Position numbers and translations under genes: made by a program
Notes under the pieces: model-generated
What the model was told of the DNA's origin: nothing
Databases searched by the model: none
Seen by the model: only the letters and a program-made list of their open reading frames with translations
IMG/VR virus record: IMGVR_UViG_3300022719_000283
Span: 124,067 to 188,066 of that record
Direction: 5' to 3' (one strand)
DNA length: 64,000 bases
DNA from: a virus
Taxonomy: Duplodnaviria; Heunggongvirae; Uroviricota; Caudoviricetes
In this document: one piece after another, positions 3 through 64,000 of the stretch
Layout of the letters: each line of letters opens with the position of its first letter
How positions within the stretch are numbered: the stretch's first letter is position 1

Positions 3-3000
3 GAAATCAGTGCGCTCAGGGAAGATTCGTGAGAACCGGCTGGGCTGTCCGAGCACACGATACAGGCCAAAGGCTTCAAGTCGCAGCGGGAACAACCGCA
101 ACCGTTTGCGAGTACGAGAAAAAAGGACGAGATCGTCTACGTCGTTGGTGGCAAGCTCACGCTGTAGGAGCTGGAGGTCGGACAAAAAGTCGGGGTCGAT
201 GAACGGACCCTCGAGCTGGTCCCCAGCAACATCGAAATCCGTGGGGTCTACCACCGGGTCTCGACGCATGAACGTGGCCTTGGGGTTGTATCCGAAGAAG
301 ACTTCCGAGAAGAGGTTCCGTCGGTTTAGTTCGCCCGAAATCGAATCCTCGTACCCAGGAGGAGGCACATCCTTACCGCGACCGATGAAGAACTGAAACT
401 TGCCATCTCGGTCCCCGATGATGTTGCCGGTGATGGTCTCGAGGATCTGCTCGAAGTTGATGATGTTGACGTTGTAGAACTCAAGGAACACTCGAGCTGC
501 CCGGTCAGTGTCCTCCAAGTCCCGAAGCTGCGACTTGAGCCCCAGGCGCCCTTGATTGGCATTTTCAACAGGAGGTACGACGGCAGGAGCAGGCCCTTGT
601 GAAGGAAGCTGAGCCGCGATGTCCTGAGCCACTTGATCAGCCACCTCGCCGATGTAGTTGAGCAGAGGGACTGTCCGGTAGAAGAAAGTGTCCGGGTTCG
701 AGAACGTGTACGTGGCCCGGAGGATTTTCCCAAGGCGTCCGTTGCCTGGCTCGCCGGTGATGGGATCTTCCTCGGCGGTCGGTGGCGTGATGTAGACAAA
801 CCGCGCGTCGAAACGGGGATTCAGTAGGACCGTGTTCGCCAGGATAGGAGTCAGAATACGCTGCTGCGTGTGGCGAAGGTACAAGCTTTGCGTTGGCTGG
901 AGCGCACCCTGTGGAGGATTGAGGAACTCCACCGAACCATCATCGACGTTGAGCACATAGTCGATCGACGGGCGGAGCGTGCGCCCAGGAAGTAGGTTGC
1001 CATCATCATCACGTTCTCCGAACAGAATCAGCTCAGAAGGCTCGGTGTCGATCACTGCACCGCGCCCGATGAACTGCTCTGGCAAAGGTTGATAGACAGG
1101 GCGCACGCTGATCTTGGCGGTGTCTTGCCCGAAGGCAAACCCCCGAGGGAAAAAACTGGTGATGTCGATCTGCGTACGAGTACCGTTGTCGATCAACGTG
1201 GAGCCCGAAATGAGGAAAGGGATGCCTCCGAGCTCCAGCAGATGGCCGACGACCGCTACTGCCGTCAAGTCTCCTGCAAACAGGATGCTTTGGAACCCGC
1301 GATTTACGGGCTCATAGGAGTTGTTGATGTCGAGCCAAAAACCTTCAGGAGCATCAGGTGTGATGTCCGTCGCGAGAGGAATGTCGGAAAGCAACGACAA
1401 GGAATCAGATCCCGGGTCCCGCGATCCCGCCTCGAGCTGTGTCTCCGGCGTGAACTCCACGGTCGTGACGTCCGTGGTGGCGTTGTAGCTGGACGCGGTG
1501 ATGTAGAAGGGGAACTGTGCAACCCGAAGCAGCTTGCCGGGTGAGACGTCCGAAGTCCGATCCGTCTCGAGCGCGAAACTCGTCTGGTCGGCCTCAATCC
1601 GGAAAGGAGGTCGGTACACAGGGGACTGGCTGACGGTATAAGTCTGCTCTCCTCCGAACGCCTCGAACACCGCGTAGGTGATGAGTGCGGTACTAGATGC
1701 GTCTACCTCTTCCTCAAGAATGACTCGGTACACCTCCTGATCGTTGTCGATCTCGAAAGAGGCCACCGGAGAGCTGCCGATGTTGTAAAGCGTCGAGTTA
1801 ATGTAGAAGGCCGGCTCGTTTTCGATGTCGTCGTCAACGGTTCGGTTAGTCGGGTTGAACGACCATCGTTTGGTCGGGCTCGGGTCCAAGGACGTTGCAG
1901 GATCGAGTCGGACAAAGGTCGGAAGCTGCTCCGTCACCTCCACTGGCTGCAACCCACTTTCAGGGTCCTCCGGATCAATAGGCTCCAGGAACAGGTTGCC
2001 CGTGCCGTTTTCCGCACGGAAGTAGTTGACCTCGACAATTTGGAATTCTCGGAGAGGTTTCGTGAAAAGCAGCGAACCCTGAATCGGGTTGAGCGTCACA
2101 TCAACGCCTCCAGTCGGGTTCATTTGCTCGACGAGATACACCTTGTTTCCTCCGAAGAGCGTGAAGGCTCCTTCAGGGAAATTGAGCTCTCCTATGTCGG
2201 GTTTGTACTCGACAACAGCCGAATCCAGAAGCGACGGAGATAGGAACTCTTCGACGTAGATGGCGTCCTGGCCATCGAACTGCTCGAATACTTCGGACCC
2301 GAAGTTGAGAAGCCCCGAGACCTCTTGGACTTCGATCACATCTCCCATCAGGGGGAAGGTGAGCGCCCCAGCCACCTTGACCAGGTCCCCGTTGGCAAAG
2401 GTGTAGGTCTTGGTGCCTACCCGAATCGAGAAGGCATCGTCATCAAACCTAGCCCCCGTAGGATCAGGGACGTTGCGAGCCGAGTTGAGAATGGTCCCCA
2501 AGTTCGTTTGGGTAAGACCAATCATCGAACCGATTCCTGAATCGGGCTCAAGACCATATCGGATAGAGATGGCCCGGTCTGAAGCCAGTGCGTCGCCCAG
2601 AACAGCCACCAGACGGTTGCTCTTTTGTTCGGCCGCACTAGTAGGCACGTCTCCCAGAAGCGACAAGACACGAACCTTCCACGGGTCTTCCGGCAGGTGT
2701 TGGAACTGAACGTATTGGGAGTCAGCAACTACCCCGAGGTCGAACTCATCACGGGTCTTTCCTTCGTAGAGCTCCCAAGGAACCACCGAATCAGTGGCCG
2801 GGAAAGGTTGTTCGACCGTCAACGAATTCGTGCTTGTAGCGTCTGCGGCGACAATGTACGTGCCTTCTGCATCACCTTGCGTGATCTTGAGTTGCCACCC
2901 GGCCTCCACCCCCAGGGCTACAAAATCAACATCCGGGGAGTTATCCGTGAACGTGGTACCTCCAGCCGTGAAGAACCCCCGCGCTCCAAGCTGTTTTTGA

Positions 3001-23050: not shown

Positions 23051-23842
23051 TTACGCGGTGATGAAGTCAGAAGCCGTGCGCTGCGTGCTGGCGTTGAAAC
23101 GGACCGATCCGACCTGTCCAATGGTCGGGTCATTACCGGTTGCCAGGAACTCGCCGTAATCGGACGAGAAGTCGTGCACATCGCTGATCGTGACGTCGCC
23201 CGTTTCCATGAGCATGCCCGTGTCACGGCTCAGGTTGGTGAGCGACCAAGAGTTAAACCAACACGTCTCGTAGAGCGTGATAATCGCCGTGTGACTGCGA
23301 GCATCACCCGGCTGGTTCTGGGGATCGTTGGTGACAGTCGGATACTGGATGGACTTGACGCCACCGTCGAAAGTACCGCCGCCGCCATTGAAACCGACCC
23401 CCGACTGACCCGTGAGATCGAAGTCCGCGAGCGTGCTGAAAACGAGCTGCTGCTCGATGTCAAAGGGCCACCGGTGATGCCGAAGGCTACGCACCGGTCC
23501 CGAAACACCGCCTGCATAACCCGTGGCCTGCCACAGGTTGGACAGGTAGAGCAGAGCGCGCTCGAACCCAGCCGTCATGGCCTCGGTCACCGAAGGGACG
23601 AGCTCGGCGATCATGTCTCCGAAACCGATCCCACGAAGCGTGTCGATGGTACGTGTCTCGTTCGGCGTGAACGAGCTCAGGACGCCCATCTGGAAGAGAA
23701 GTTGCGCATCCGACCCGTAGGCCGGGGTCAGAAGACGCACCTTCTGCGAAACGGCCGTACGCGTCTGTGGAGACGTCCCGAAATCGTAGATGTAGCTCGA
23801 GCCCTGAACACTGTTGGCGGGCATCATGTCGGTGTTTGGCAT
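23051..23842 (-). CDS. Tail tube protein (263 aa)
   Basis: Beta-rich; ETRTIDTLRGIG...ELVP and ITLYETCWFNSWS...LMETGDVTISDV match contractile tube patterns. ATG 23842 has a GGAGAGGAAGG RBS. Position is between sheath and chaperones. Confidence 0.8.
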   Translation of the reverse strand: MPNTDMMPANSVQGSSYIYDFGTSPQTRTAVSQKVRLLTPAYGSDAQLLFQMGVLSSFTPNETRTIDTLRGIGFGDMIAELVPSVTEAMTAGFERALLYLSNLWQATGYAGGVSGPVRSLRHHRWPFDIEQQLVFSTLADFDLTGQSGVGFNGGGGTFDGGVKSIQYPTVTNDPQNQPGDARSHTAIITLYETCWFNSWSLTNLSRDTGMLMETGDVTISDVHDFSSDYGEFLATGNDPTIGQVGSVRFNASTQRTASDFITA

Positions 23843-23933
23843 TGGCCTTCCTCTCCGTGAGGCGGCTGGACCCACCAGGGAACCAGGACCGCGCAAAATG
23901 GGACAAAATTAGTCCCTCTAATCAAGACGCCGT

Positions 23934-24178: not shown

Positions 24179-26419
24179 CTATTTTCGGTAAACCACCGCC
24201 CGAGACACTTTTCCGTTAGGAAGCTCGAAGCCCACCTCTTCGACAAACTTCAACTCAAACTGAGGCGCCGATCTTTCCACTTCCGGGTGAAGGTCGTCGG
24301 GGAGCACCACTGCAAAATGGCCCCCCTTCGTCAAAACTTCTGCACTTTTCCTGACTAACGGGACCAGAAATTTGCGAACCCAGTCGGAGCGATTGTCATA
24401 CGAGATGTGGGGCTGGCCTTCCCGATCGGAGTACTGCTCAACGTCGAAGTAAGGAGGTGACGTAAAAACGAATTCAACGGGTGGGATCTCAGCATCCAAC
24501 GCCGACACGAGACGCACGTCTGCCTTGTACCCCAAATCCCGAGCTAGAGCCTTGTTGCCATGAACCGTTTCCGGCTCGATATCGGTACCAATGTATCGAA
24601 CCCCCGCTGCCGCAGCTCCCAACAAGCGCCCACCGTAACCAGAGCAAGGATCCCACACCAAAGCGCCTCGGCGGCAGTACCTCTCACACAAGAACCGAGC
24701 GAACGCTGGCCGAAACACCGCTGGAAGACGATGATGGAAAGTCAAAGCCTTGAGCACACGTTCGGGACTTGTGGGATGCCCCGCAGCCATCTGGGTGAAG
24801 ATCGCCTTTTCCAATTCACGGTCATCTTCCCAACACTCCACGGCCGAAGGATGTCCTTTGCGCCGTGCCGTGTAGATGTTTGGGAAATACCGACGACACA
24901 ACTTGTTCCCCGTGTATGACCGTGGAAGGATGATCCCCTGATCCAGTCGCTGACGTATCCGAGACAGCTTGTGAAGCACCTGTGTGGCTTCTTCTGGAGT
25001 GGGTTTTTGCAGGTACGGGAAAGACCTTGATCGAAGATCCTCAAGCACCTCTTTGGCCTTCTCACGCATCTGTGCCTGCTGCTGCAAATAATCCCCACGT
25101 TGTTCGATCAGCCCTCGAACGTGGTCCTCCGTGAGCGGCTCCGTGTACGGAATCACCACCAAACCCAGGCCGAGCTCTTGAGCCTTTTGGGCTTTGAACC
25201 GATCCATCTCTTGCTGCCGTTCAAACCCTTCAGGGGTTCGGTGCCAGCGTGGAACAAACTGAAAATGCTGAGGACCGTGGTACTCAACGAGCAGGTTGTG
25301 GCGACGAAAATACCCATCGTAATAAACCCGAAAACCTGTCTCCGGGTTTCGAATCTCGTCGTGGGACCACTCCCACTGGTAACGCTCTCCCAGAATCTTG
25401 GAAACAACTTCCAAAGCTTTTCGCTGAGCGGCCAGCCGGTTCCGTGTCGGAATGCCGAGAAGTTTGGCGTAGGTCCGAACGGATTCTTGAGAAACCTTAA
25501 GTCCCTTGGCTGCCGCCAACACCACTAAATCTCCGTTGTCATCCAAGTACGGGGCCAAGTGGGCGTGGTCGAGCCCGAGACGATGATGAGTCTCTCGTAT
25601 TCTTCGATTCCGAAACTCGTAAGTGTCATCCGACCACAAACTGGAGCCGGGATACTTCCGGGCGTACTCCGCCCAGGTCAAGTCGTGGGTTCGGATATGG
25701 CTTGAAAGGGACTTGGCCTCGAAGCCACAGACACGACACCGAACGTATTCGGTGCCTTCCTCCATCCCTTCAAACTTCGTAAGAAGTTTCTGGGCCTTGT
25801 GTTTGGCGTGCTTTTCATCTTCGGCTTGATGTCGAAAATGGCTCGACAACCCTCGCTGACCTTCACAAACCAAACCGCAAACCGGACACTCCATCGGGTT
25901 CCTCTTGATCGAAGCGCACGCGGGACACAGGTAAGTCTTTCGTTTCGCCTTGGAGCCCCGACTCAAAGTGAACTTGGCTTCGCATTTCTCGCACACCGCT
26001 TGTGTCTGCTGAGTCCGACGAGCTTTGCCCGTCTTGGTGATGTTCGAAGCAGTCGCTTTTTTCCGTTGAAGCTCTCGACTTCGTTTGTTGAATCCTTCTT
26101 CACCGTGCTCCTCTTTCCACCATCGACGAACAACGGTGAAATGAACCCCCACCTGGGAAGCTACGGACTTGAGAGACTCCTCCCCGTAAAACAGCTCTTT
26201 GGCTCGAGCTTGTGCTTTTTCCAAGGCGCTCCCCTTGAGCCGGCTCCTATTGCCCGACCGGGCCTTTTTGCCTCGAAGCCGTACCCCGCTCTCCCCGTGC
26301 TCCTTCACCCACCACTCTCGAACCTGAGAACGTGAAACTTGAAGTTGCTTGGCAGCCTCTACGAGACGAACACCCTCCTTGAACATCTTGAGTGCCCGTT
26401 CCCGCACATCGGAAGTCAT
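24179..26419 (-). CDS. HTH/Zn-finger + PD-(D/E)XK (DUF559/Vsr-like) endonuclease fused to an amino-DNA methyltransferase
   Basis: Two HTH-like repeats ending WWxxEHG; CxxC ribbons; C2H2 CPVC...H...H; MucR-like CRVCG..KSLSSHIRTHDLTWAEY; nuclease YYDGYF...LLVEYHGPQHF; MTase motif I VWDPCSGYGGRLLG and motif IV TSPPYF. Confidence 0.8.
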   Translation of the reverse strand: MTSDVRERALKMFKEGVRLVEAAKQLQVSRSQVREWWVKEHGESGVRLRGKKARSGNRSRLKGSALEKAQARAKELFYGEESLKSVASQVGVHFTVVRRWWKEEHGEEGFNKRSRELQRKKATASNITKTGKARRTQQTQAVCEKCEAKFTLSRGSKAKRKTYLCPACASIKRNPMECPVCGLVCEGQRGLSSHFRHQAEDEKHAKHKAQKLLTKFEGMEEGTEYVRCRVCGFEAKSLSSHIRTHDLTWAEYARKYPGSSLWSDDTYEFRNRRIRETHHRLGLDHAHLAPYLDDNGDLVVLAAAKGLKVSQESVRTYAKLLGIPTRNRLAAQRKALEVVSKILGERYQWEWSHDEIRNPETGFRVYYDGYFRRHNLLVEYHGPQHFQFVPRWHRTPEGFERQQEMDRFKAQKAQELGLGLVVIPYTEPLTEDHVRGLIEQRGDYLQQQAQMREKAKEVLEDLRSRSFPYLQKPTPEEATQVLHKLSRIRQRLDQGIILPRSYTGNKLCRRYFPNIYTARRKGHPSAVECWEDDRELEKAIFTQMAAGHPTSPERVLKALTFHHRLPAVFRPAFARFLCERYCRRGALVWDPCSGYGGRLLGAAAAGVRYIGTDIEPETVHGNKALARDLGYKADVRLVSALDAEIPPVEFVFTSPPYFDVEQYSDREGQPHISYDNRSDWVRKFLVPLVRKSAEVLTKGGHFAVVLPDDLHPEVERSAPQFELKFVEEVGFELPNGKVSRAVVYRK

Positions 26420-26461
26420 CCCGCAGAGACTACTTCGGCAGGAACAGCCAGTCAACCTACC

Positions 26462-26524: not shown

Positions 26525-29500
26525 TTACGTGCCCAAATTCGAGCGCACGTTGAAGGTGATGACGACGTAGAGAAGCGGGAAAACCGGCTGATAGAACGCC
26601 TCCACCTCGACGATCGTCGGATCGTTGGTGGTACGTGCCTGGACTCCCGTGAACGCGGTGATGATCTCCGCGTTCTTGAGCGCCTTCAACGTGGTCGTGA
26701 GCTGACCTTCGATCTGGCTCAGAACACCAGGCAAGAACTTGATGCCGATGAAGCGATCGAGGTCCCGACGTGCCGACCGTTGCACCTCGTCCGCGATGGT
26801 GATCACGGTCGGGAGCTTGGTCAGGATGTTCGTTACGTCCGTGGTCAGGCCCTGACGGACCCGGATCACGGTGCCACGCTGATCCATGATGGTGACACCC
26901 TGGACTGCGATCTGGTTCTGCTCCACCGCATCGAGCGTTCGAGCAAGCTGATCGAACCCAACGATGCGTGCCCGCGTCCACGGGGTAGCCACGTCGATAT
27001 TCGGGCTGGCCCGGTTACCCGCCATGGCCGAAGCCAAGAAGGTGCCGTCCACCAGGAACTGCTTGTCGTTGCCGAGAGCATCCTGGATGGTCAGCGTCAC
27101 GATATCCGGGTACACCATGCGGATACGGGTGTTCTGGATCTGTTGGGCGATCCCACCCACATCCGTCGGCTGAGTCCCAGAGGCGACACCGATGAGACCC
27201 GTCCGCTCCGAACGGAATCGGATACTGGACTGAATGTCGCAGTGGTTCGAGAGCGACAGGAACAGGTCCACGTCATCACCCTTGAGCGGCGTGATGGTAT
27301 CCAGGATCGAACCGCCCGGAAGCGGTCCGCGCAACTCATTGAGCGCGTCGATGTAGTTCGGCGTGCTGGCTTGGTTGCTACCAGGGATCTTCGGCACCTG
27401 CTTGACGCCGAGGACAACTGCACCGTTCAGGAACGAGAGGAAAGCAGCCATCGACACCGGGTTGTCCGGGTTGATCTCGCCGTAGTTGCGCTCCACCGCC
27501 CGTTGGTTGGTGTAGAGCATCGTCTCGAAATCGGCCGCCGTCTTCGTGTAGTTGTAGGTGATGTAGTAGCTATCACCCACCGCCGGTTCCTGACCTCCAC
27601 GATCGAAGGTCTCCACGATAGCCGTGTCTCCCGTCGGAATGGTCGATCCTTCGGTGTTGGCCACTCTGAGCTCGAGACCCGGGATGGAATTCACAGGCAC
27701 ATTGGCATCCGTAGTCACGAGCTTGCGCACCTGGAAGGTGAAGAACGCTCCAGCTCCGATCGGATAGTCTGCCCCGCCTTCACGCGGAAGGATGGTGAAG
27801 ACCAATCCTGTGACCTCATCGCGGTAGGTCTGACCGATCACACCGTCCTGGCCCACGCCATTGTTGAGACAGGAGGTGTTGGCCGTACCCGATCCGTCGA
27901 TGGGATCCGAGCTCGTGACATAGAACCCCTGGAAACCGGTCTCGCCGGATGCTCCATCCCCGCTTTGGACTTGGAGGCCCGTTCCAGTACGAAGCCACGA
28001 ATCGGTGGCCGCATCCAAGAACGTGATGTTCGAGGAGGCTCCCAGACCCACGATGTTGTTGGCCTGCGATTCGATGAACAGGAATTCCGCGTTGGTGGAG
28101 CTCACTTCCTTGGCGGCCAGAGCCTGGTCCGCGAAGAAAGAGGAGTCCGGGGACTGGTAATCCAACAGAACACCGTTGATGCTCGAGCTGTGGTGCATCA
28201 TCAAGGACGATGCGACCTTTTCGGGCTGGACGCTGGTGCGCGTCGAAGTCGCTCCCTCAGAGAATCCCAAGGAATCGTTGGCATTACCGTTGTCGATGGT
28301 GACCGCCGAGTTGATGTTGCTCAGGGCCGACACCAAACGGATGCCCGCACCTTCAGGCACAACCTGATCGGCAGCCAAACCGGCGCCGACGGCCGCAGAC
28401 CGAATCTGCTCGAGAATCGTGTTGGGCACCGTGACAGGACCCAGCGGAACCGTGGCCTGGCCAGCAGACGGGATCGCGACCCCGGACGCATCCGTGAACA
28501 CGACGGTGACCGGGGTCCCGTCAATGTTGAACTTGAATACGTTGTTCTGCGGATTCACACCATTCGGCCCAAAGAACACGACCTGGGGCTGACCATCACG
28601 GTCATCCGTGAAGGTGCCAGAGGGCACCTGCCCGTCGGCGAATCCAACCTCTCCGAAGAGCGAAGCCGGTTGAATGACCGCACCCACTCCAGCTTCACCG
28701 AAGAAGCCGGAGGGAAGACCGGTCTCATCGGACGCGTTCGTACCCTGGATGACCAGGTTGGTTTGGGCCACCTGGCTCTCGGGACGAAGCGAACCGGATC
28801 CCGGCGTGATGCGGTTACGCATGATGAGACGGTCGTAGATCAGCCGGCCACTGGTGCCCGCCACCGAGAACCGGCGCACCACATCGCCATCGATGATCTT
28901 GGTCTGCTCCTGGCTGGGAAGCGCATCGGTGCTGATACCCGCCAAGACCGCGAAGTCCTCGCCAAAGGAGGCTGCGTCGAGGAACTCGAACACACCACCC
29001 CCGAGCCCTGAGCCGCCCGTAAGCGTGGCCGCAGACACGGGTAGACGAAGGGCATCGCTGGAAGACAGCGTGATGAAGTTGCCCTGTGGCCCGGGGTCCG
29101 CCGCAGTGATGTCGACCGTGGAAGAGGTCCCTGAGCTGTTGTCGGCCGTCACGATGGTGTCCAGACCATTGAGCGGATCCGTGATGGCCGTGACGATGGT
29201 AGTAGCCACCCCAACATCGGTGAGTCCTCCTCCAAACACGGCTCCCGAAACAGGAAGTCGCACAGGATCCGAGCTCGCCAAGGTGATGCCGTTTCCAGCT
29301 ACACCGGGCACGTCGGCCCAGACCGTAACGGTCGAAGAGGTGCCGCTATCGTTGTCGGCGGAGACGTCAGCCGCAAGGCCGTTGCCCAAGTCGTTGATGG
29401 CCGCTGCCAAGGAGCTCGCCACCGTCAGATCGGTGCCCACACCACCCTGAAGGGTGAGGTTGGACATGATCAGGCGGCTCGCACTCGAGCTCGTCGTGTC

Positions 29501-32500
29501 GATGATATTGCCCGCGTTTCCGGGGGTGACTGCGGTCATGGTGACCACGTTGCCCACGGAGGAGCCACTCACGGTGACGGAGATACCGTTACCAGCATCG
29601 TTGATGGCCGCCGTGATGGAGGCTGCAACGGTGGTATCGGTACCCACACCACCCAGCAGAGTGGCTCCTGAGAGGGTAATGCGGGCGGCGCCCGTGGACT
29701 CCATCAAGCCAATGCCATCGCCCACAACGCCGGGAGTGAACGACTCGATCGTGACCGTGTCGGAGGTCCCGCTGGCATTGTCCGCGACTACATCAGTGAG
29801 TCCGTTGGCCGCGTCAGAAATAGCCGCCACCAGGCTCGTAGCCGCCGAAATGTCGTCACCAATCCCACCTGTGAACAACCCACCCGACAGAACGAAACGT
29901 CCCGCAGCGGTGGTGCTGAGGGTAAGGAGGTTGCCCACCGCCCCCGGAGTCACAGCCGTCATGTTGACAGTGCTGCCCACTGCAACCGCGGTGACATCCC
30001 CGTCGAACGAGTTGGCAGCATCGTTGATCGCCGCCGCAGCGTCCGTAGCCGCGGAATCGTTGTCTCCCGCACCTCCCGACAAAGTAGCCCCGCCAAAGGT
30101 GAGACGAGCCGGCGCGGTGGAGACGGTGCTGATCGAATCCCCGGCAAGACCGGGCGTCAGGGCCTGGAGGTCCACCGTGGCCGAAGTGCCAGCCGTGTTG
30201 TGAGCCTGCACAAGGCCAGAGAGCCCGTTCAATGGATCGAGGACTGCCGAGACAATGGCCGTGGCAGTCGTGATCTCATCACCCACGCCGGCCACGGTGG
30301 CTCCAAAGCCGCCCGCCGTGGTGACGGTGCCGTCCGAGCTCATGTTGGTCACGACGTTGGCGAACGAGCCCGGGACCGTCCAGGTCAGGGTCACGTCACT
30401 CGGGCCGGGGCCAACCGCCGCGGACATGAACGTGGCAAAGGCATTCGCCGGATCGTTGAGGGCCGCGGCAATTTCAGCCGCAATGGCCGCTGTAGTTCCC
30501 AGCGTTTCGTCGTAGTCGTTTGCACCCGGGGTGCGGGGACCACCAGCCGGTGCCAGCGGGAAAGGACCGCCATTGGCACCGCCACTGTCGATCGTGATCG
30601 TGGCGCTGGAGGGAGCTGCCGTTACGGTCAGCGTATCCGTGGCCTGGGTTCCGGCGTCGAAGTTCAGACCGCCCGGAGTAGTCACGGAGTCTGCGGTGAG
30701 CGCAATACCTCCGATGGTGATCGTGTCGCCGTAGAGAACCCCCGTGCTCGGGCTAAGCGAGTCGGCCACCACCGTGAGCATCCCAATGGACCGGGTCCCA
30801 GCATCGAAGTCATCCGCACCAGGAGTCCTGGCTCCCTCCACCGGCGTCAGAACATTGCCGTTGATGGTAACCGTGTCAGCGGGCACGGCAGGGAAGGGCG
30901 CCGTAGTGGCCGGTCGAACCCCCATCACCATGAAATCGGCGATGGCAGCCTGACCCACGTTGAAGTCCATGCCCCCCGGGGTGAGCGTATTGCTCGCCGT
31001 CAGGGTGACAGGACCACCGCCGACTACCGAAGTGTCGATGGTGATCGTATCCCCATACTGCACGCCACTGAGCATGGCCGTGCCGGAAGAACGAGTACCT
31101 TCGTCGAAATCGAGACCACCCGGGGTCTGAGATCCCGAAGCGGTCAGAGTGATTCCGTCGACAGTGACGGTGTCACCGGGGATGGGGCCCACCACGGTGA
31201 GAGTGCCCGTGGCCTGGGTGCCTTCGTTGAAGTTCAGACCACCCGGAGTCTGAGCTCCAGATGCCGTCAAAACGACAGGACCACCGCCCACAGCCGTGGT
31301 GTCGATGGTGACCGTGTCCCCAGGCTGCACACCGGAGGTCATGATCGTGGCTCGAGCCTGTCCGGTATCGTAGTCCAATCCACCAGGGGTGACGCCGAGA
31401 GAGCCGGTCAGGGTGATGCCGCCGATCTCGATGGTGTCACCGAGAACGGACCCGACGTTGGTCACAGTGCCGGTGGCAAAGGTACCCAGGTCGGTATCGG
31501 CTCCCGTGAAGGTGAACCGCATTTGCCCGTCCGCATTCGCCGTGCACTCGACATCGACACCGTCGAAAGCGGCCGGAAGAGCCGCAATGGCCGTATCGAG
31601 AGCCGTGTTGACGGCAGCCGCCAGCGCATTCGGGGAAGTGTAGGTTCCCGGAGCAACCGTGGCCGTCACAGGGCCCGTGGACCCGTTCGTGATGCCGGTG
31701 TAGTTGAACGCCAAGCTGTCGTATTCCCCAGCCGTGATGACCGTAGCTCCCAGGAACCGAGTCACGCCATCGTAGTACGGGGCGTTGTCGCTGAGTTTGA
31801 CCTCGGCATTGATGGCCTCGACATAGGCATCCGCATCCACGCCCGTCTGAGCAGGCACGTCGACCGTGACGACAACATTGTCGACCGTGAACGAAATGTT
31901 GTCGTTCAGGCCCGACAAGACGTCGTAGGTAGTCTTGCCCGAATCATCGGTGTACTGGATCTCGTCGCTGAGAAGCGATGCGTTGAACCCGAGGCCAGCG
32001 ATTCCATGAGGTGCCGAGAGATCAATACCCGCAGCACCCCCAGACAGTGGGGAGCTGTCGATCATGAATCGAGCTCGATCCGACTCGCCTTCTACGAAGA
32101 AGTACGGCCCCGAACCAGGAACCGTGTATTTCGCGATCGTGGAATCCTTGTCCGAGAACTGGACCGTAACCGTCTCCTCCACGGGACCCTGGGTGCCTCC
32201 CTCGAAGTGCACATCGGGAGTGATTTCCGATCCGGAAGGGAATTGGATCGTCACGCCAGTGAGAGCCGGCCCCTTCGACCCAAACTTCGGGGTGAAGATC
32301 GGGTTGCCGTCGCTGTCGAACAGGAAGTAGGTTCCGATCCCGGAGGGACCGCTGGTCTCAACCTGAACCGTGTACTCCTCATCGACGATGATGTTGTACC
32401 AGAAGGTTGCCCAGACACCGGCTCCAACAGGCACCGGATCCTCGAGTGTGATCTCGGTTCCGTTCACCTCGGTGACAGCCACGGGGCCGCGTTGAAGAGC

Positions 32501-33991
32501 ATCCTGGATCCCGAAACCCCAGTAGGCACGAACGAGATTGGGGTTGTTCGTAGGCAGGTCGCGCCGATTGTTGCTGATGGTCAGGAACGTATCGGTACCG
32601 AGCGGAGTGTCGCGCCCGTTGCCTGTAGTGGGCTGAACCGGAAGTGTGAACTTGGTGCGGTCCTCGACTGGAGGATTCACCGAGTCGTCGACCACCACCT
32701 CTGTGGGAGCCAAGAACCACCGGTTGTCGATCAACAGCCCACTGATCTGGCTGGGGCCCAACTCCGGGGCTCCGGGAGTAGTGAGTCCCGGAGTAATCAG
32801 GAAGGCGGTGCCCCAAACAACCAGATCGTCCTTGAGAATGAAGTCTGCATCCTCGATGAAGTCGTTGTTGAGCGGAACGATGCCGCAACGGATAACTTCC
32901 GTGACGTTGATATTCGCCAAGTAGTCGAAGGTATCTTGCCACGTATTGAAGAAGTACTGGACCGTGACCTCGGCACCCGCCTGGGGAGCAAAGGGCAACG
33001 AAATCGCACGGTTTTGACCGTCGACCTCGGTCGGAAGCACCTGCACCCCATCCACCCGGACAGTCACCTTGGAGGTGTCGGTGGTCGTAATGCCGCCGTT
33101 CGTACCGTCCACGATCGGACCGTTGTACGTGAAAAAGGTGCGGTTGCGGCTGGTATTCTGGCCTTCCGTGAACCCGAGGACGACGTTGGCCGAGCCATCG
33201 CCGATGAGGAGATCACGATCGGCAACGAGCCGAACTGCGGTCAGCCCGAAGTTGTTCGTATAGGTCGAAGCGACCAGCGAAGTGCCGGCAGCAGCACCGT
33301 TGATCAGAGACACGACGGTTGCAGCAGTGACGCTTCCAGTAGGAAGTGTGACGTTGACCACCTGTTGGCTGGTCTGCGAAACGTCCTGATCCACGGTCAC
33401 AACGAACTCGTTGGTGTCCGAAGTGAACTCGTACTGGTTGCCAATCGCGCCATTCAGGATGGCGGCTTCAGGCGTGGCTTGATTAGACAGATCGTCGGTG
33501 ATCTGGGTGTCGGTGCGCTTGAAAAAGTACGTGACGCGGACATCGTCACCCAACTCAGGAGCAGTGCTGAGCTCGATGACGCCGATATCGGCGCGAGCCA
33601 CGGATAGCACCACGTCGGGGACTCCGTTGATCGTCACGAAAATCGTACTGGGATCCGTAGCGATGGTGCCGCTCCCATCACCGTTGGTGATGGGAAAGTT
33701 GCGCACCTGGATACGACGACGATCACCGTTGAAGTCACCAAGGATGACTTCGCCGGTCTGCGTGATCTGTACGACCGAGCGGCCCGTCTCATCCTCCTGT
33801 GGGACCTCCTGATCCACGGAGCTCGAGGAGCCACGGATGACCTCCAGGTCCTGCTGTTGGAGAAGTTCATTGCCTGTCCCGATGTAGACGGGAATGCGAA
33901 CACCCGCCAGCACGGCGGAGACCGGGCTCTCGAACAGTGTGCGCGTGTAGACGTCTGGGGGTGCGTAAATGTTGCCGGGGAAAGATGCCAT
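26525..33991 (-). CDS. Giant contractile tail sheath protein (2488 aa) with large inserted repeat region
   Basis: Sheath-type N-terminus YAPPDVYTR...IPVYIGTG and C-terminal domain (RERTGLIGV...VRQGLTT...TIADEV...FIG...VEAFYQPVFPLLYVVITF); GAGG RBS. Confidence 0.9.
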   Translation of the reverse strand: MASFPGNIYAPPDVYTRTLFESPVSAVLAGVRIPVYIGTGNELLQQQDLEVIRGSSSSVDQEVPQEDETGRSVVQITQTGEVILGDFNGDRRRIQVRNFPITNGDGSGTIATDPSTIFVTINGVPDVVLSVARADIGVIELSTAPELGDDVRVTYFFKRTDTQITDDLSNQATPEAAILNGAIGNQYEFTSDTNEFVVTVDQDVSQTSQQVVNVTLPTGSVTAATVVSLINGAAAGTSLVASTYTNNFGLTAVRLVADRDLLIGDGSANVVLGFTEGQNTSRNRTFFTYNGPIVDGTNGGITTTDTSKVTVRVDGVQVLPTEVDGQNRAISLPFAPQAGAEVTVQYFFNTWQDTFDYLANINVTEVIRCGIVPLNNDFIEDADFILKDDLVVWGTAFLITPGLTTPGAPELGPSQISGLLIDNRWFLAPTEVVVDDSVNPPVEDRTKFTLPVQPTTGNGRDTPLGTDTFLTISNNRRDLPTNNPNLVRAYWGFGIQDALQRGPVAVTEVNGTEITLEDPVPVGAGVWATFWYNIIVDEEYTVQVETSGPSGIGTYFLFDSDGNPIFTPKFGSKGPALTGVTIQFPSGSEITPDVHFEGGTQGPVEETVTVQFSDKDSTIAKYTVPGSGPYFFVEGESDRARFMIDSSPLSGGAAGIDLSAPHGIAGLGFNASLLSDEIQYTDDSGKTTYDVLSGLNDNISFTVDNVVVTVDVPAQTGVDADAYVEAINAEVKLSDNAPYYDGVTRFLGATVITAGEYDSLAFNYTGITNGSTGPVTATVAPGTYTSPNALAAAVNTALDTAIAALPAAFDGVDVECTANADGQMRFTFTGADTDLGTFATGTVTNVGSVLGDTIEIGGITLTGSLGVTPGGLDYDTGQARATIMTSGVQPGDTVTIDTTAVGGGPVVLTASGAQTPGGLNFNEGTQATGTLTVVGPIPGDTVTVDGITLTASGSQTPGGLDFDEGTRSSGTAMLSGVQYGDTITIDTSVVGGGPVTLTASNTLTPGGMDFNVGQAAIADFMVMGVRPATTAPFPAVPADTVTINGNVLTPVEGARTPGADDFDAGTRSIGMLTVVADSLSPSTGVLYGDTITIGGIALTADSVTTPGGLNFDAGTQATDTLTVTAAPSSATITIDSGGANGGPFPLAPAGGPRTPGANDYDETLGTTAAIAAEIAAALNDPANAFATFMSAAVGPGPSDVTLTWTVPGSFANVVTNMSSDGTVTTAGGFGATVAGVGDEITTATAIVSAVLDPLNGLSGLVQAHNTAGTSATVDLQALTPGLAGDSISTVSTAPARLTFGGATLSGGAGDNDSAATDAAAAINDAANSFDGDVTAVAVGSTVNMTAVTPGAVGNLLTLSTTAAGRFVLSGGLFTGGIGDDISAATSLVAAISDAANGLTDVVADNASGTSDTVTIESFTPGVVGDGIGLMESTGAARITLSGATLLGGVGTDTTVAASITAAINDAGNGISVTVSGSSVGNVVTMTAVTPGNAGNIIDTTSSSASRLIMSNLTLQGGVGTDLTVASSLAAAINDLGNGLAADVSADNDSGTSSTVTVWADVPGVAGNGITLASSDPVRLPVSGAVFGGGLTDVGVATTIVTAITDPLNGLDTIVTADNSSGTSSTVDITAADPGPQGNFITLSSSDALRLPVSAATLTGGSGLGGGVFEFLDAASFGEDFAVLAGISTDALPSQEQTKIIDGDVVRRFSVAGTSGRLIYDRLIMRNRITPGSGSLRPESQVAQTNLVIQGTNASDETGLPSGFFGEAGVGAVIQPASLFGEVGFADGQVPSGTFTDDRDGQPQVVFFGPNGVNPQNNVFKFNIDGTPVTVVFTDASGVAIPSAGQATVPLGPVTVPNTILEQIRSAAVGAGLAADQVVPEGAGIRLVSALSNINSAVTIDNGNANDSLGFSEGATSTRTSVQPEKVASSLMMHHSSSINGVLLDYQSPDSSFFADQALAAKEVSSTNAEFLFIESQANNIVGLGASSNITFLDAATDSWLRTGTGLQVQSGDGASGETGFQGFYVTSSDPIDGSGTANTSCLNNGVGQDGVIGQTYRDEVTGLVFTILPREGGADYPIGAGAFFTFQVRKLVTTDANVPVNSIPGLELRVANTEGSTIPTGDTAIVETFDRGGQEPAVGDSYYITYNYTKTAADFETMLYTNQRAVERNYGEINPDNPVSMAAFLSFLNGAVVLGVKQVPKIPGSNQASTPNYIDALNELRGPLPGGSILDTITPLKGDDVDLFLSLSNHCDIQSSIRFRSERTGLIGVASGTQPTDVGGIAQQIQNTRIRMVYPDIVTLTIQDALGNDKQFLVDGTFLASAMAGNRASPNIDVATPWTRARIVGFDQLARTLDAVEQNQIAVQGVTIMDQRGTVIRVRQGLTTDVTNILTKLPTVITIADEVQRSARRDLDRFIGIKFLPGVLSQIEGQLTTTLKALKNAEIITAFTGVQARTTNDPTIVEVEAFYQPVFPLLYVVITFNVRSNLGT
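29010..31490 (-). repeat. Seven N-half repeats followed by seven C-half repeats inside the sheath
   Basis: 7x (A/S)TGT..V..GDT(I/V)TI...LT....TPGG..FD.G, then 7x A..(I/L)..AI.D..NG...V.A....TV...A..PG..GN.I.....RL..SG.TL.GG; coordinates approximate. Confidence 0.85.
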
Positions 33992-34243: not shown

Positions 34244-34756
34244 TTACGAAGCAGCCTCGTCTGGAATCTCGTGAACACCGGAGAGCGCGCGGTAATTTTC
34301 CGCCTGCGAGCCATAGGCTCGGCGCTCTTTCCGGTACTGGTTGATGCGCTTCATGGCCTCCTGGTGTTGAAGGCGCGCCTTCTTGGAAGCGACCCTCTCC
34401 TTCTCCGTCATCACGAAGTAGTCACCGTCGTCGAGACGGGAGAGGTGGTCGCCAGTAGTCTGGTTTGCGGCAATCACGCGCCGCTTGTGATCGGCTCGTG
34501 CCTGGAATTCTCGAAGGTGAGCCTGTGCGCTTCGGCCAATCACCACATCGACATCGTGATCGACCGAGCTCGCTCCCGTGTTCTGAGGAGCGGGGGCATC
34601 AGGGCGGTGCCCAAACCTGAAGCTGGGCGCCGAAAGCTGCCGAGACGCAGTTTCTCCGCACTTCTTACACGGAAGCGTCCCCTTTGCAGCCGCCTTTGAC
34701 TGCATAGCACTGAACTGCAAACCGCAGTCTGGGCAGTGGTACTTGAAAATCGGCAA
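34244..34756 (-). CDS. FmdB-family zinc-ribbon protein
   Basis: MPIFKYHCPDCG...CKKCG..ASRQLSAPSF pattern; TTG start with GGAG RBS. Confidence 0.7.
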   Translation of the reverse strand: MPIFKYHCPDCGLQFSAMQSKAAAKGTLPCKKCGETASRQLSAPSFRFGHRPDAPAPQNTGASSVDHDVDVVIGRSAQAHLREFQARADHKRRVIAANQTTGDHLSRLDDGDYFVMTEKERVASKKARLQHQEAMKRINQYRKERRAYGSQAENYRALSGVHEIPDEAAS

Positions 34757-36153: not shown

Positions 36154-37176
36154 CTAATCTTCGTCGTCGTCGACGTATTCCTGCATCGCTTGGACGAGAA
36201 GCCCGCGCGCAACAGCGTCCAGAGGTTCCCGGGCCGCCCGGATTTCGCTGATCTCGATGGGGAATTTTTTACGTTTGTCCTCGAAGACCTGGGTGAAGAA
36301 CTCAAGGAAGCCGCCGGCCTTGGACGTGCCGCCGCTGACGACGATGGGGATCGGCTTAGGCAACGCGAACTTGCCCTGGATCTTTTTGAACTCGCTCGCC
36401 ACATTGTCGATCGCGTATTCGATCAGACTTTTGTAGTAGACGACCAGAGCTTCCTCTTCCCGACTCTGCGGGTGCATGAGGTTGAGCCCCTTTTCCTTGA
36501 GCGTACACATGCGGGCCTGTGTCGAACCCGTGGACTTCGCAGCACCGTGGTCTAACCAATCACCGCCCCTGGCAACCGAAAAACTCAACCCTTCGATGGT
36601 GCCCATTGCAAGTGCGACGTTCGTCATCCCGCTCCCGAAGCTCATCCCGATGCCGGAGAACCCATCCTTCGCACATTCGGAATAGATGATGGCCAGCGCC
36701 TCGTTACTTGGGTACGCCTTGTAGCCGCATTCGGTAACAATGCGCTCAAGAACACCTTGGTGATAGACCACATCTCGGTCCGGGTCGTCGACAGGGGCGG
36801 CCGGCACTGAAAAGTAGCAGACCTCGTTTTCGGCCTTCGGCTCACCCAGCACGTGCTTGACGAGGATACCAAGGATCTCGAGGGCGTCGATTTCCCCTGC
36901 CGAGATGAGTCCCGACTGAAGAGGACGCCGAACTTCCCGGCTGAACATGTTGGCCATGTCATAGGCCGCATCGCCCACGATAACTAGGCCATCCTCGGTT
37001 GTCACGTAGTTGACACCGGAAAGCTTGAGCATCTTGCGGTGTTCCGACGGCAGATCAAGGAAAGCATCACGAATGCGGTTCGTGATGACGCCTTCCCTGG
37101 TACGCCGGGCAGCGACAATATTCATGGTGCCCATGTCGAGCCCAACTCCGAGCACTGGATTTTCACTATCGCTCAT
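36154..37176 (-). CDS. Actin-family ATPase (MreB/FtsA/ParM-like)
   Basis: Phosphate-1 GLDMGTMN, connect-1 NEALAII, phosphate-2 GMSFGSGMTN, adenosine motif VVSGGTS; 340 aa. Confidence 0.85.
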   Translation of the reverse strand: MSDSENPVLGVGLDMGTMNIVAARRTREGVITNRIRDAFLDLPSEHRKMLKLSGVNYVTTEDGLVIVGDAAYDMANMFSREVRRPLQSGLISAGEIDALEILGILVKHVLGEPKAENEVCYFSVPAAPVDDPDRDVVYHQGVLERIVTECGYKAYPSNEALAIIYSECAKDGFSGIGMSFGSGMTNVALAMGTIEGLSFSVARGGDWLDHGAAKSTGSTQARMCTLKEKGLNLMHPQSREEEALVVYYKSLIEYAIDNVASEFKKIQGKFALPKPIPIVVSGGTSKAGGFLEFFTQVFEDKRKKFPIEISEIRAAREPLDAVARGLLVQAMQEYVDDDED

Positions 37177-62922: not shown

Positions 62923-64000
62923 CTAGAAGAAAGTCGCCGAGACACTATCGATCTGGATCGATGGGTCGTTGATCTTCCACGCAACGTGGATCCCATCGAG
63001 CATGGAGAATCCGCCAAACGTGAAGTTGATGGTGTTGACTGAGCTCGTCGCCTCCCGGATTTTTGGGTCCGTAAGACCGTCATCGAACGTGGCAAAGCTG
63101 TAGGTGCCTCCGTGCAAAATGAGAGGACGGCTGTTGCCCGGAAGAGGCCCCGCATTGCCGACCGATCCTGTGCGCTTGAAGATCCAGACTTGCAACGCAC
63201 CACTTACAAGGTCCGCCAGCGCGTTGGCACCTGCGAAAGACCCTGTGAAGACGAGGGTGCCACTCGCACGGAACAAACCACTGGTGTCGTCGAAGGTTTC
63301 GAACCCGATCGCGGGGGCTGTGAGGGTCGTGTAATCGGGGTTCGCTCCCAAGGTCGTAGGCGAGTACGTAGTCCAATCGGCGTTGGGAGAGTTGGGGCCG
63401 TCGGAGCGAACAAGAGTCGTCGAGCTCGGAACGACGAGACGGCTGTTCCAAACCTGGGCAGGAATGCCGCCTCGCAAAAGGGTTGTGGCAGAAACCGCGA
63501 TGCGAGCAGGGACCGAGGTTGCCAGGGCAATAGCGTTTCCTGCCGACCCCGCAGTGACAGCCGTGACCCGCACATCCCCGCCAGTGCCGTCCAGGAGGCC
63601 CGCACTGGCCGTAACCACGCCGGCCGTCCCATTCAAAGGGTCGTTGATCGCAGTGATGAGCTCGGCTTGTAGAGCCGCCAGCGTGCCCAAGGTGGCATCG
63701 AAATCATCAGAACCAGGAGTCCGTGCCCCGGCCACTCCCGTGAACGTCGTGGCTCCGATCGTGAAGGTGTCCCCCACGGTCAAAGGAGCGGTCAGAACTC
63801 GAATCACTCCGGTGGCAGCATAGAGAATGCCGTTGAGATCATCGGTACTGATCCAGTTCCCGGTAGCCGCTCCGGCATTGAACGTGGCATCCTGGCGTCG
63901 TGCCTCATCGTCGTAATCACGCGTCAGCACCGTGCTCGTGACCCCGTAGGTGTCGATGAGAACAGAAGCATCGCTGCTCACGACGGAACCGCTCGTCGCC
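62923..64000 (-). CDS. Virion structural protein, 5'-truncated by the window; carries one intact copy of the sheath repeat domain
   Basis: Frame open to the right edge; ATGVIRV...GDTFTIG...RTPGSDDFDATLGT.AA.....AINDPLNG...VTAGSAGNAI.LA......ATTLLRGG. Confidence 0.75.
   Translation of the reverse strand, partial: ATSGSVVSSDASVLIDTYGVTSTVLTRDYDDEARRQDATFNAGAATGNWISTDDLNGILYAATGVIRVLTAPLTVGDTFTIGATTFTGVAGARTPGSDDFDATLGTLAALQAELITAINDPLNGTAGVVTASAGLLDGTGGDVRVTAVTAGSAGNAIALATSVPARIAVSATTLLRGGIPAQVWNSRLVVPSSTTLVRSDGPNSPNADWTTYSPTTLGANPDYTTLTAPAIGFETFDDTSGLFRASGTLVFTGSFAGANALADLVSGALQVWIFKRTGSVGNAGPLPGNSRPLILHGGTYSFATFDDGLTDPKIREATSSVNTINFTFGGFSMLDGIHVAWKINDPSIQIDSVSATFF

Follow-up and report, generated by a model that had tools for sequence, protein, structure and literature searches.

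A giant contractile-tail sheath protein of an uncultured huge phage very probably carries seven copies of one domain nested out and back within a single chain, so that each N-terminal half Ni pairs with the C-terminal half C(8-i). The gene lies in a stretch of 64,000 nucleotides, here called the window, which covers positions 124067-188066 of one IMG/VR virus record (IMGVR_UViG_3300022719_000283; 618,736 bp, 58% G+C, classed linear, 92% complete by CheckV estimate), and its product has 2488 amino acids (aa). An earlier note on this DNA had proposed a model written as N1..N7-C7..C1, in which each domain sits inside a loop of the previous one. The spans of structural alignments, the fold of a truncated construct, co-evolution and the layouts of relatives all speak for that proposal. 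In the present text the C units are numbered in their order along the chain, from C1 to C7.

Seven N-type units are followed by seven C-type units

The seven N-type units occupy residues 836-1164 and the seven C-type units follow directly at residues 1165-1660. Seven halves of each type had been expected at 29010-31490 of the window, and the array was found at 29012-31486; the pivot, expected at about 30503 as the sole contact between an N and a C unit, was located at the N7|C1 junction 30499/30500, where N7 and C1 are contiguous. Each N unit (41-52 aa, beta-strands) closes with a T-P-G-G/A motif, which occurs seven times at residues 868-1154, and each C unit (68-74 aa) starts with an Ala-rich helix and ends with L-x-G-G. 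Hidden Markov models (HMMs) were built from the N and the C units and run against all six frames of the entire 618,736-bp genome. They recovered 14/14 units with independent E-values of 5e-10 to 6e-27 and, outside the sheath gene, matched only four other open reading frames (ORFs), therefore the array is not due to chance. One HMM per half finds all seven members of its kind, with identities of 25-53% among the N units and 31-51% among the C units.

A homolog search with the sheath protein yielded 120 proteins, in which units were counted by HMM. The 7+7 layout is retained by all 44 full-length orthologs (2420-2489 aa, 55-89% identical), and unit lengths show all 14 units in each. About 20 of the 120 (1730-1880 aa) carry just one NC, contiguous and about 115 aa long, and 54 (about 1600-1800 aa) have no array units. 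Single homologs show NCNC (P0056), NCNCNCNCNC (P0063) and NNCC (P0090), which brings the sheath layouts overall to NC, NCNC, (NC)x5, NNCC and 7+7; none of the sheath homologs has a nesting depth of 3-6. The array-less relatives place the insertion point in a hairpin of the host domain, between strands ..MRFTFTG and GVFEF... In the genome of the phage itself, two of the four other matching ORFs carry an adjacent N+C pair and two show C-unit matches only; the NC domain or its C-half is therefore a module common to several proteins of this phage. Because N and C are contiguous in relatives and in solved sheath structures, they are the two halves of one ~115-aa domain and not independent repeat types.

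Structure prediction supports mirrored pairing

Residues 828-1670 were modelled by AlphaFold2 (AF2) with the alignment of the 44 orthologs. Every unit was ordered in the resulting model, with a mean predicted local distance difference test score (pLDDT) of 91.4 and a predicted template modelling score (pTM) of 0.52; each N unit forms a strand block and each C unit a helix followed by four strands. An exhaustive structural comparison of this model with 48,161 PDB chains gave as its best match the outer domain of the cyanophage A-1(L) sheath (8kee_A residues 91-185), laid on model positions 287-406, which correspond to N7+C1 (Z 11.0, root-mean-square deviation 2.1, 93 aligned residues, 27% identity, for a predicted model against a solved structure). 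The next matches were PhiTE 9cb9_A (Z 9.3), Mu 9khy_a (Z 8.0), Milano 8fop_T (Z 6.2-6.4) and E217 8env_A (Z 4.6-5.0). Sheath outer-domain matches had 18-33% identity over 69-99 aligned residues, or 11-15% identity for E217, and T7-like nozzle proteins, FliD D2-D3 and FliC D2 also appeared among the structural matches. Alignments to single domains (66-100 residues) started in one N unit and ended in a distant C unit, with spans of 50..764 (N2..C6), 97..693 (N3..C5), 148..623 (N4..C4), 239..482 (N6..C2) and 287..410 (N7..C1) in model numbering. Since these one-domain alignments bridge distant segments, the segments that they join form one compact body in the model.

An unbalanced construct consisting of N1-N7 and C1-C3, with C4-C7 removed, was then folded; in it, mirrored and parallel pairing are both sterically possible. 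N5-N7 and C1-C3 kept a pLDDT of 89-97, and N1-N4 dropped from 90-95 to 62-86, each without its first strand, with the switch in confidence exactly at the N4/N5 boundary. A structure search with the unbalanced model returned the spans 287..411, 239..482 and 184..551 (N5..C3) and none touching N1-N4. An ESM-Atlas shape search with the truncated model gave template modelling (TM) scores of 0.20-0.32 and was uninformative. The earlier note had predicted that a structure of sheath residues about 830-1665 would pair N1 with the last C-half and N7 with the first. In the models, alignments start in Ni and end in C(8-i) for i = 2-7 (i = 5 in the second model), so that domains D2 to D7 are read directly from the predictions. 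The part of the claim on N7 was thus borne out by the 287..410 span, and the part on N1 stands by elimination and co-evolution, which point to C7 as the likely partner completing D1.

Paired halves evolve together

The paralog similarity matrices of the N and C units are mirrored, with a correlation of 0.82 when i is matched to 8-i and of -0.11 when i is matched to i; N7 and C1 are joint outliers as the most divergent paralogs. In a residual mirror-tree analysis, the shared phylogenetic signal was removed and unit-specific distance matrices were correlated across the 44 orthologs. Residual correlations peaked on the anti-diagonal (N3-C5 0.68, N2-C6 0.47, N7-C1 0.33), and the mirrored permutation ranked 2 of 5040, against 4412 for the parallel one. 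Mean divergence is nearly equal in paired halves (r 0.90, rank 21 of 5040, vs -0.65 for parallel pairing). It climbs toward the pivot, from 0.32-0.35 in D1 and D2 to 0.45-0.49 in D6 and D7, and length variation follows the same gradient. Position-specific HMMs typed the contiguous NC of relatives mostly as N5 + C3 or, in P0064, as N7 + C1, and the halves of P0090 as N3,N5|C3,C5/C3. Unit classes based on indels (long or short N; C with or without a 3-residue insert) were discarded as a test of pairing: they are nearly palindromic and fit both registers. Identities weakly suggest a period-2 block duplication (D2~D4 and D3~D5, with D2,D3 giving D4,D5), which we do not claim.

In a tree built on the sheath core, the single-NC proteins fall among the 7+7 sheaths (P0045+P0010, P0051+P0044, P0043+P0046-49). 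An origin of the single-NC relatives P0045, P0051 and P0047 from a 7+7 sheath by loss of N2..C6, with N1 fused to C7, was considered and rejected: the NC in them is a divergent copy that global alignments place at scattered points of the array. Because of the interleaved core tree and these divergent copies, the whole cassette appears to have been exchanged by recombination rather than trimmed.

The same nested design occurs in other proteins

A search with the C-unit profile against 1.84 billion representatives found 1063 proteins, and the order of N and C units was typed in the best 150. Among these, nine clusters have NNCC, two have NNNCCC and one has NNNNCCCC, and many tandem forms also occur. 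Clean cases, comprising sheaths and other phage proteins, have as many N as C units at depths of 1, 2, 3, 4 and 7. This agrees with the equal counts that the earlier note had expected of homologs under nesting: NC, NCNC, (NC)x5, NNCC, 7+7, NNNCCC and NNNNCCCC are all balanced.

P0128, P0123 and P0121 (metagenomic; L003 3221-4786) are small stand-alone phage proteins of 298, 406 and 521 aa that consist almost only of the nested stalk. They have the same N-terminal leader and vary in nothing but depth (2, 3 and 4), and at the tip each has a domain of the N7+C1 type, like the sheath. On the phage-like contig that encodes P0121, its neighbours are a ribonucleotide reductase and a RecD-like helicase. 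Of the 12 typed nested proteins, 5 (P0121, P0123, P0128, P0142 and P0146) have an innermost pair of the N7+C1 type, and in the remaining ones this pair is N3-type or unclear. Outer pairs were typed as N4,N7|C1,C4 in P0146 and N3,N7|C1,C5 in P0128, and i+j=8 holds in the clear cases. Because NNCC, NNNCCC, NNNNCCCC and N7+C1-type tips recur in other proteins, self-nesting appears, on the evidence of unit order, to be a habit of this domain family whose depth evolves.

P0122, P0124, P0127 and similar phage proteins contain tandem C-type units with a period of about 100 aa and spacers of only about 30 aa. These tandem arrays suggest a shortened variant of the domain with an N-half that escapes the N model.

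The host protein is a putative tail sheath subunit

The C-terminal core of the protein (residues 1969-2488) was compared by tblastn with 50,697 phage records. It matched 224 of them, and the annotated features under the listed matches are tail sheath genes. They include the 1204-aa sheath of Tunturiibacter phage Tunturi_5 (E 5e-41, 84% of the query), gp178 of Bacillus phage G (E 5e-29), and cluster-C mycobacteriophages and Gordonia phages (1e-13 to 1e-19, about 1e-19 for cluster C). Language-model (Atlas) features of the protein point to sheath clusters, and the homolog P0090 matches PF04984 at E 4e-7. PDB sequence searches with the whole protein gave nothing usable, nor did those with a profile of the C-terminal core. 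A 281-aa ORF at 23051-23896 has homologs beside the sheath gene in LR745208.1 (E 3e-93) and in Tunturi_5, where it is annotated as 'virion structural protein' (E 1e-39); a Pfam search with this ORF was without any match, and it is possibly the tail tube protein. Based on the core matches, the language-model features and the PF04984 match of P0090, we accept the protein, from its sequence relationships, as a contractile-tail sheath subunit.

Genomic surroundings

The minus strand of the window carries nearly all of its large ORFs, many of them giant. The features that bear on the array are listed in Table 1. Directly downstream of the sheath gene, between it and the conserved 281-aa neighbour, is a 758-aa ORF (24179-26455, -) with N-terminal helix-turn-helix domains (PF13518, E 4e-9), PHROG matches of the HNH or homing-endonuclease-like kind and a DNA methyltransferase segment (PF01555, E 2e-5). 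This ORF has the look of a selfish insertion. On its upstream side, the sheath gene is closely preceded by a 170-aa ORF with a Zn-ribbon at its start (34244-34756, -; PF09723, E 1.5e-11), and an actin-family protein is encoded among the structural genes by a 340-aa ORF with a full-length match to Pfam Volactin (36154-37176, -; PF25216, E 8e-77). Two open frames run antisense over the sheath gene (26780-29011, +, 743 aa; 30200-33607, +, 1135 aa); they are most likely a by-product of the G+C-rich, stop-poor composition of the repeats and not genes. The record contains 54 tRNA genes in few clusters, with most amino acids covered. A terminal overlap of the record ends, first suspected near 3.7 kb, was rejected: the final 127 nt alone recur (exact, 3628-3754).

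Table 1. Positions of the array units and related features. Coordinates are those of the window unless marked as genome; res, residues of the sheath protein.
Feature	Position	Strand	Evidence
Tail sheath gene P0001, 2488 aa	26525..33991	-	ORF; 44 orthologs of 2420-2489 aa; C-terminal 520 aa match annotated sheaths
N1, res 836-878, N-half of D1 (outermost, nearest the sheath body)	31358..31486	-	Probable partner C7, by elimination and residual co-evolution (r 0.24)
N2, res 879-925, N-half of D2	31217..31357	-	Alignments span 50..764 (N2..C6); residual r with C6 0.47
N3, res 926-966, N-half of D3	31094..31216	-	Alignments span 97..693 (N3..C5); residual r with C5 0.68
N4, res 967-1014, N-half of D4	30950..31093	-	Alignment spans 148..623 (N4..C4)
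N5, res 1015-1066, N-half of D5	30794..30949	-	Spans 184..551 (N5..C3) in truncated model; NC of relatives best as N5+C3
N6, res 1067-1115, N-half of D6	30647..30793	-	Alignments span 239..482 (N6..C2)
N7, res 1116-1164, N-half of tip domain D7	30500..30646	-	Contiguous with C1; matches A-1(L) sheath outer domain, Z 11.0
C1, res 1165-1238, C-half of tip domain D7	30278..30499	-	Unit HMM, structural alignments
C2, res 1239-1310, C-half of D6	30062..30277	-	Structural alignments (N6..C2)
C3, res 1311-1378, C-half of D5	29858..30061	-	Subtype scores (N5+C3), alignments in truncated model
C4, res 1379-1450, C-half of D4	29642..29857	-	Structural alignment (N4..C4)
C5, res 1451-1519, C-half of D3	29435..29641	-	Structural alignments, co-evolution
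C6, res 1520-1589, C-half of D2	29225..29434	-	Structural alignments, co-evolution
C7, res 1590-1660, probable C-half of D1	29012..29224	-	Residual co-evolution
Conserved sheath core, res 1969-2488	26528..28087	-	tblastn matches to annotated tail sheaths
281-aa ORF, conserved neighbour of the sheath gene, possibly tail tube	23051..23896	-	Homologs adjoin the sheath gene in two other phages
Intact contiguous NC (N7+C1 type) in a large structural-type ORF running off the window	63463..63819	-	HMM N 1.4e-8, C 5e-11, adjacent; tblastn from tip domains of P0121, P0123, P0128
Further ORFs with NC domain or its C-half, outside the window	genome 96592-100026, 194900-195937, 274373-275980	-	E 9e-10 to 2.5e-15

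Proposed architecture and alternatives

In the nested model, about 825 residues would be inserted into a beta-hairpin loop of one peripheral sheath domain and would form seven copies of a ~115-aa alpha/beta surface domain with the fold of the small-sheath outer domain. Each copy would sit in the loop of the preceding copy, between its N-terminal strand block and its helix. The chain would lay the N-halves of D1 to D7 outward, turn at the sole contiguous domain D7 (N7+C1) and return with C2 to C7 completing D6 to D1, re-entering the host domain beside its exit point. The outcome would be a seven-bead, two-stranded stalk on each sheath subunit, and folding may begin at the contiguous tip and zip toward the base as the C-halves emerge. 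Because domains inserted in sheath proteins are found on the tail exterior (PMC9230969), the stalk would be exposed there. As to its geometry, projection from the tail and function, we infer a stalk that would measure roughly 20 nm when its seven domains are extended, along a path that the pTM of 0.52 leaves open, and that would give the phage a densely bristled tail. Its role is most likely that of an exposed adhesion or spacing 'bristle', or of providing lateral stabilising contacts. The faster evolution of the outer beads would fit an exposed role facing the host or the environment, or may instead reflect weaker constraint. The array could have grown through a copy inserted at the pivot loop or through matched tandem duplications on both arms.

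Several observations weigh against this reading or against the sheath identity that goes with it. Pairing was deduced from where the alignments begin and end and from shifts in pLDDT, not from a contact map; the N1-C7 pair is without a direct sighting in the models; the pTM of the full model does not fix the arrangement of the beads as a straight rod or a folded-back one; and single-chain AF2 is blind to the difference between pairing within a subunit and swapping between subunits. Some distant proteins have apparently unequal N and C counts. In these cases the short N model is insensitive to short or divergent N-halves, or matches overlap, and they count as neither support nor refutation. Whole-protein Pfam and PHROG scans gave no significant sheath match, a PF04984 scan of the whole phage genome gave no match, and PF17482 reached only 13.4-15.7 bits at the C-terminus, below the cut-off of 26.9. 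Weak PF17482 matches occur in 9 of 20 homologs, and the missed Pfam cut-off reflects the limited sensitivity of the model for a divergent clade and is not evidence against homology.

Among the alternatives, the one that shares the mirrored pairing places it between chains: the N-arm of one subunit would be completed by the C-arm of its neighbour, a three-dimensional domain swap that would cross-link the sheath lattice. Strand exchange between neighbouring sheath subunits is established by structural work on pyocin and T4 sheaths, swapping is compatible with the single-chain AF2 runs, and the N-halves alone stay partly ordered in the truncated model (pLDDT 62-86). However, N7 joins C1 without a linker, which puts the tip domain within one chain; proximity favours zipping back along the same chain; and the array also occurs in the stand-alone proteins of 298-521 aa, which have no sheath lattice. 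We therefore regard swapping as unlikely, and equally improbable is its extension, in which seven-domain swaps would weave the sheath of a giant tail into a chain-mail that must slide or unzip on contraction. More likely than the chain-mail, and put forward tentatively as a real possibility, is that the nested stalk is a portable cassette of adjustable depth (2, 3, 4, 7), exchanged among virion proteins as a tunable spacer.

The remaining alternatives change the pairing itself. The linear order is simply seven N units and seven C units, as two independent tandem arrays would give, one of beta-meander and one of helix-plus-sheet repeats, their equal number being a coincidence or a matter of assembly stoichiometry; orphan N units also retain some strands in the truncated model. 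This explanation is largely refuted already and is very improbable, since many relatives and the solved sheaths have N and C side by side as the halves of a single compact domain, single-domain structural matches bridge Ni and C(8-i), loss of C4-C7 destabilises exactly N1-N4, rate co-variation is mirrored, and counts are equal at five depths. Parallel pairing (N1-C1 up to N7-C7), in an array closed into a ring or bent like a horseshoe, draws on the nearly palindromic coarse unit classes that fit either register, but it runs against its low rank in residual co-evolution (4412 of 5040) and the negative correlation of divergence (-0.65), against the truncated N1-N7+C1-C3 model in which AF2 kept N5-N7 ordered and not N1-N3, and against the spans of the structural alignments. 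Of all the readings we give it the least credence.

If the nested model is true, the array would be among the deepest and cleanest natural recursive self-insertions, with a single pivot and seven unbranched levels. Each virion would contain hundreds of copies of the protein, and the array is shared by at least 44 sequence clusters. It would provide a sequence rule for such architectures, namely mirrored half-arrays, matching divergence of paired halves and subtypes that obey i+j=8, and the depth series 1, 2, 3, 4, 7 would be a natural set for studying folding and growth. For phage biology, the prediction is a tail clad in built-in stalks instead of separately attached fibres, which has a bearing on how very long tails are stabilised in huge phages or how these phages adhere to hosts. 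For evolution and design, it would mean that the fold of the sheath outer domain tolerates repeated insertion in one loop.

Comparison with known systems

Out-and-back insertion of different domains is established for tail sheaths, and a survey of modelled sheaths counted 'five and more' domains in total (PMC9230969). The T4 sheath protein gp18 and the jumbo-phage 'type 3' sheaths (Evseev et al. 2022, PMC9230969) have a conserved core made from the N- and C-terminal parts. The present protein, with a C-terminal core homologous to annotated sheaths, resembles them in its peripheral domains inserted into one another, and in such multi-domain sheaths some domains are formed by an outgoing and a returning chain segment (PMC9230969). 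They nest different domains, whereas here one type would be nested in itself seven deep, in a host sheath that is already giant (about 1660 aa without the array, 2488 aa with it). The outer domains of the A-1(L), PhiTE, Mu, Milano and E217 sheaths have the same fold and are likewise exposed on the surface of the sheath subunit, but in those small sheaths the domain is single and contiguous, and here it would occur seven times, each copy but the last being split by the one that follows. FliD D2-D3 and FliC D2, on which NC superposes with Z 6.5-7.7, are also exposed variable domains of a helical assembly with an out-and-back chain; at such Z the likeness is perhaps only one of common arrangement, without a demonstrated sequence relationship.

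Our literature search found no paper on self-nesting in a tail sheath or in this fold. Recursive self-nesting is rare and has been reported so far mainly for cyanobacterial RNA polymerase. The earlier note knew of no case of sevenfold recursive insertion of one domain, which is too strong as a claim of no precedent: Si3 in the beta' subunit of this polymerase has up to six levels, and the same phage domain is nested 2-4 deep elsewhere. A 2026 census describes Si3 as a six-level nested architecture (PMC13114784), and in its crystal structure 4 of 8 sandwich-barrel hybrid motifs (SBHMs), SBHM-2 to -5, are discontinuous (PMC10895346). Like the sheath array, Si3 consists of homologous small domains recursively inserted into each other, which makes an elongated arm with an out-and-back chain. 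It differs in its unrelated SBHM beta-barrel fold and host protein, in mixing nested with tandem copies and in having branch points, whereas the sheath array would be strictly linear, seven deep and with one pivot. No SBHM structure was among the 50 best structural matches of the models, the best being alpha/beta sheath outer domains, and the likeness is one of architecture only.

On the level of the virion, the nearest counterparts are the 'hairy' jumbo myoviruses phAPEC6, CBB and Y3, whose hair-like tail appendages are thought to aid host interaction (PMC7247149, PMC13282480). In these phages the hairs are separate fibre proteins at a few tail rings, whereas in the phage described here, known from sequence alone, the projection would belong to every sheath subunit.

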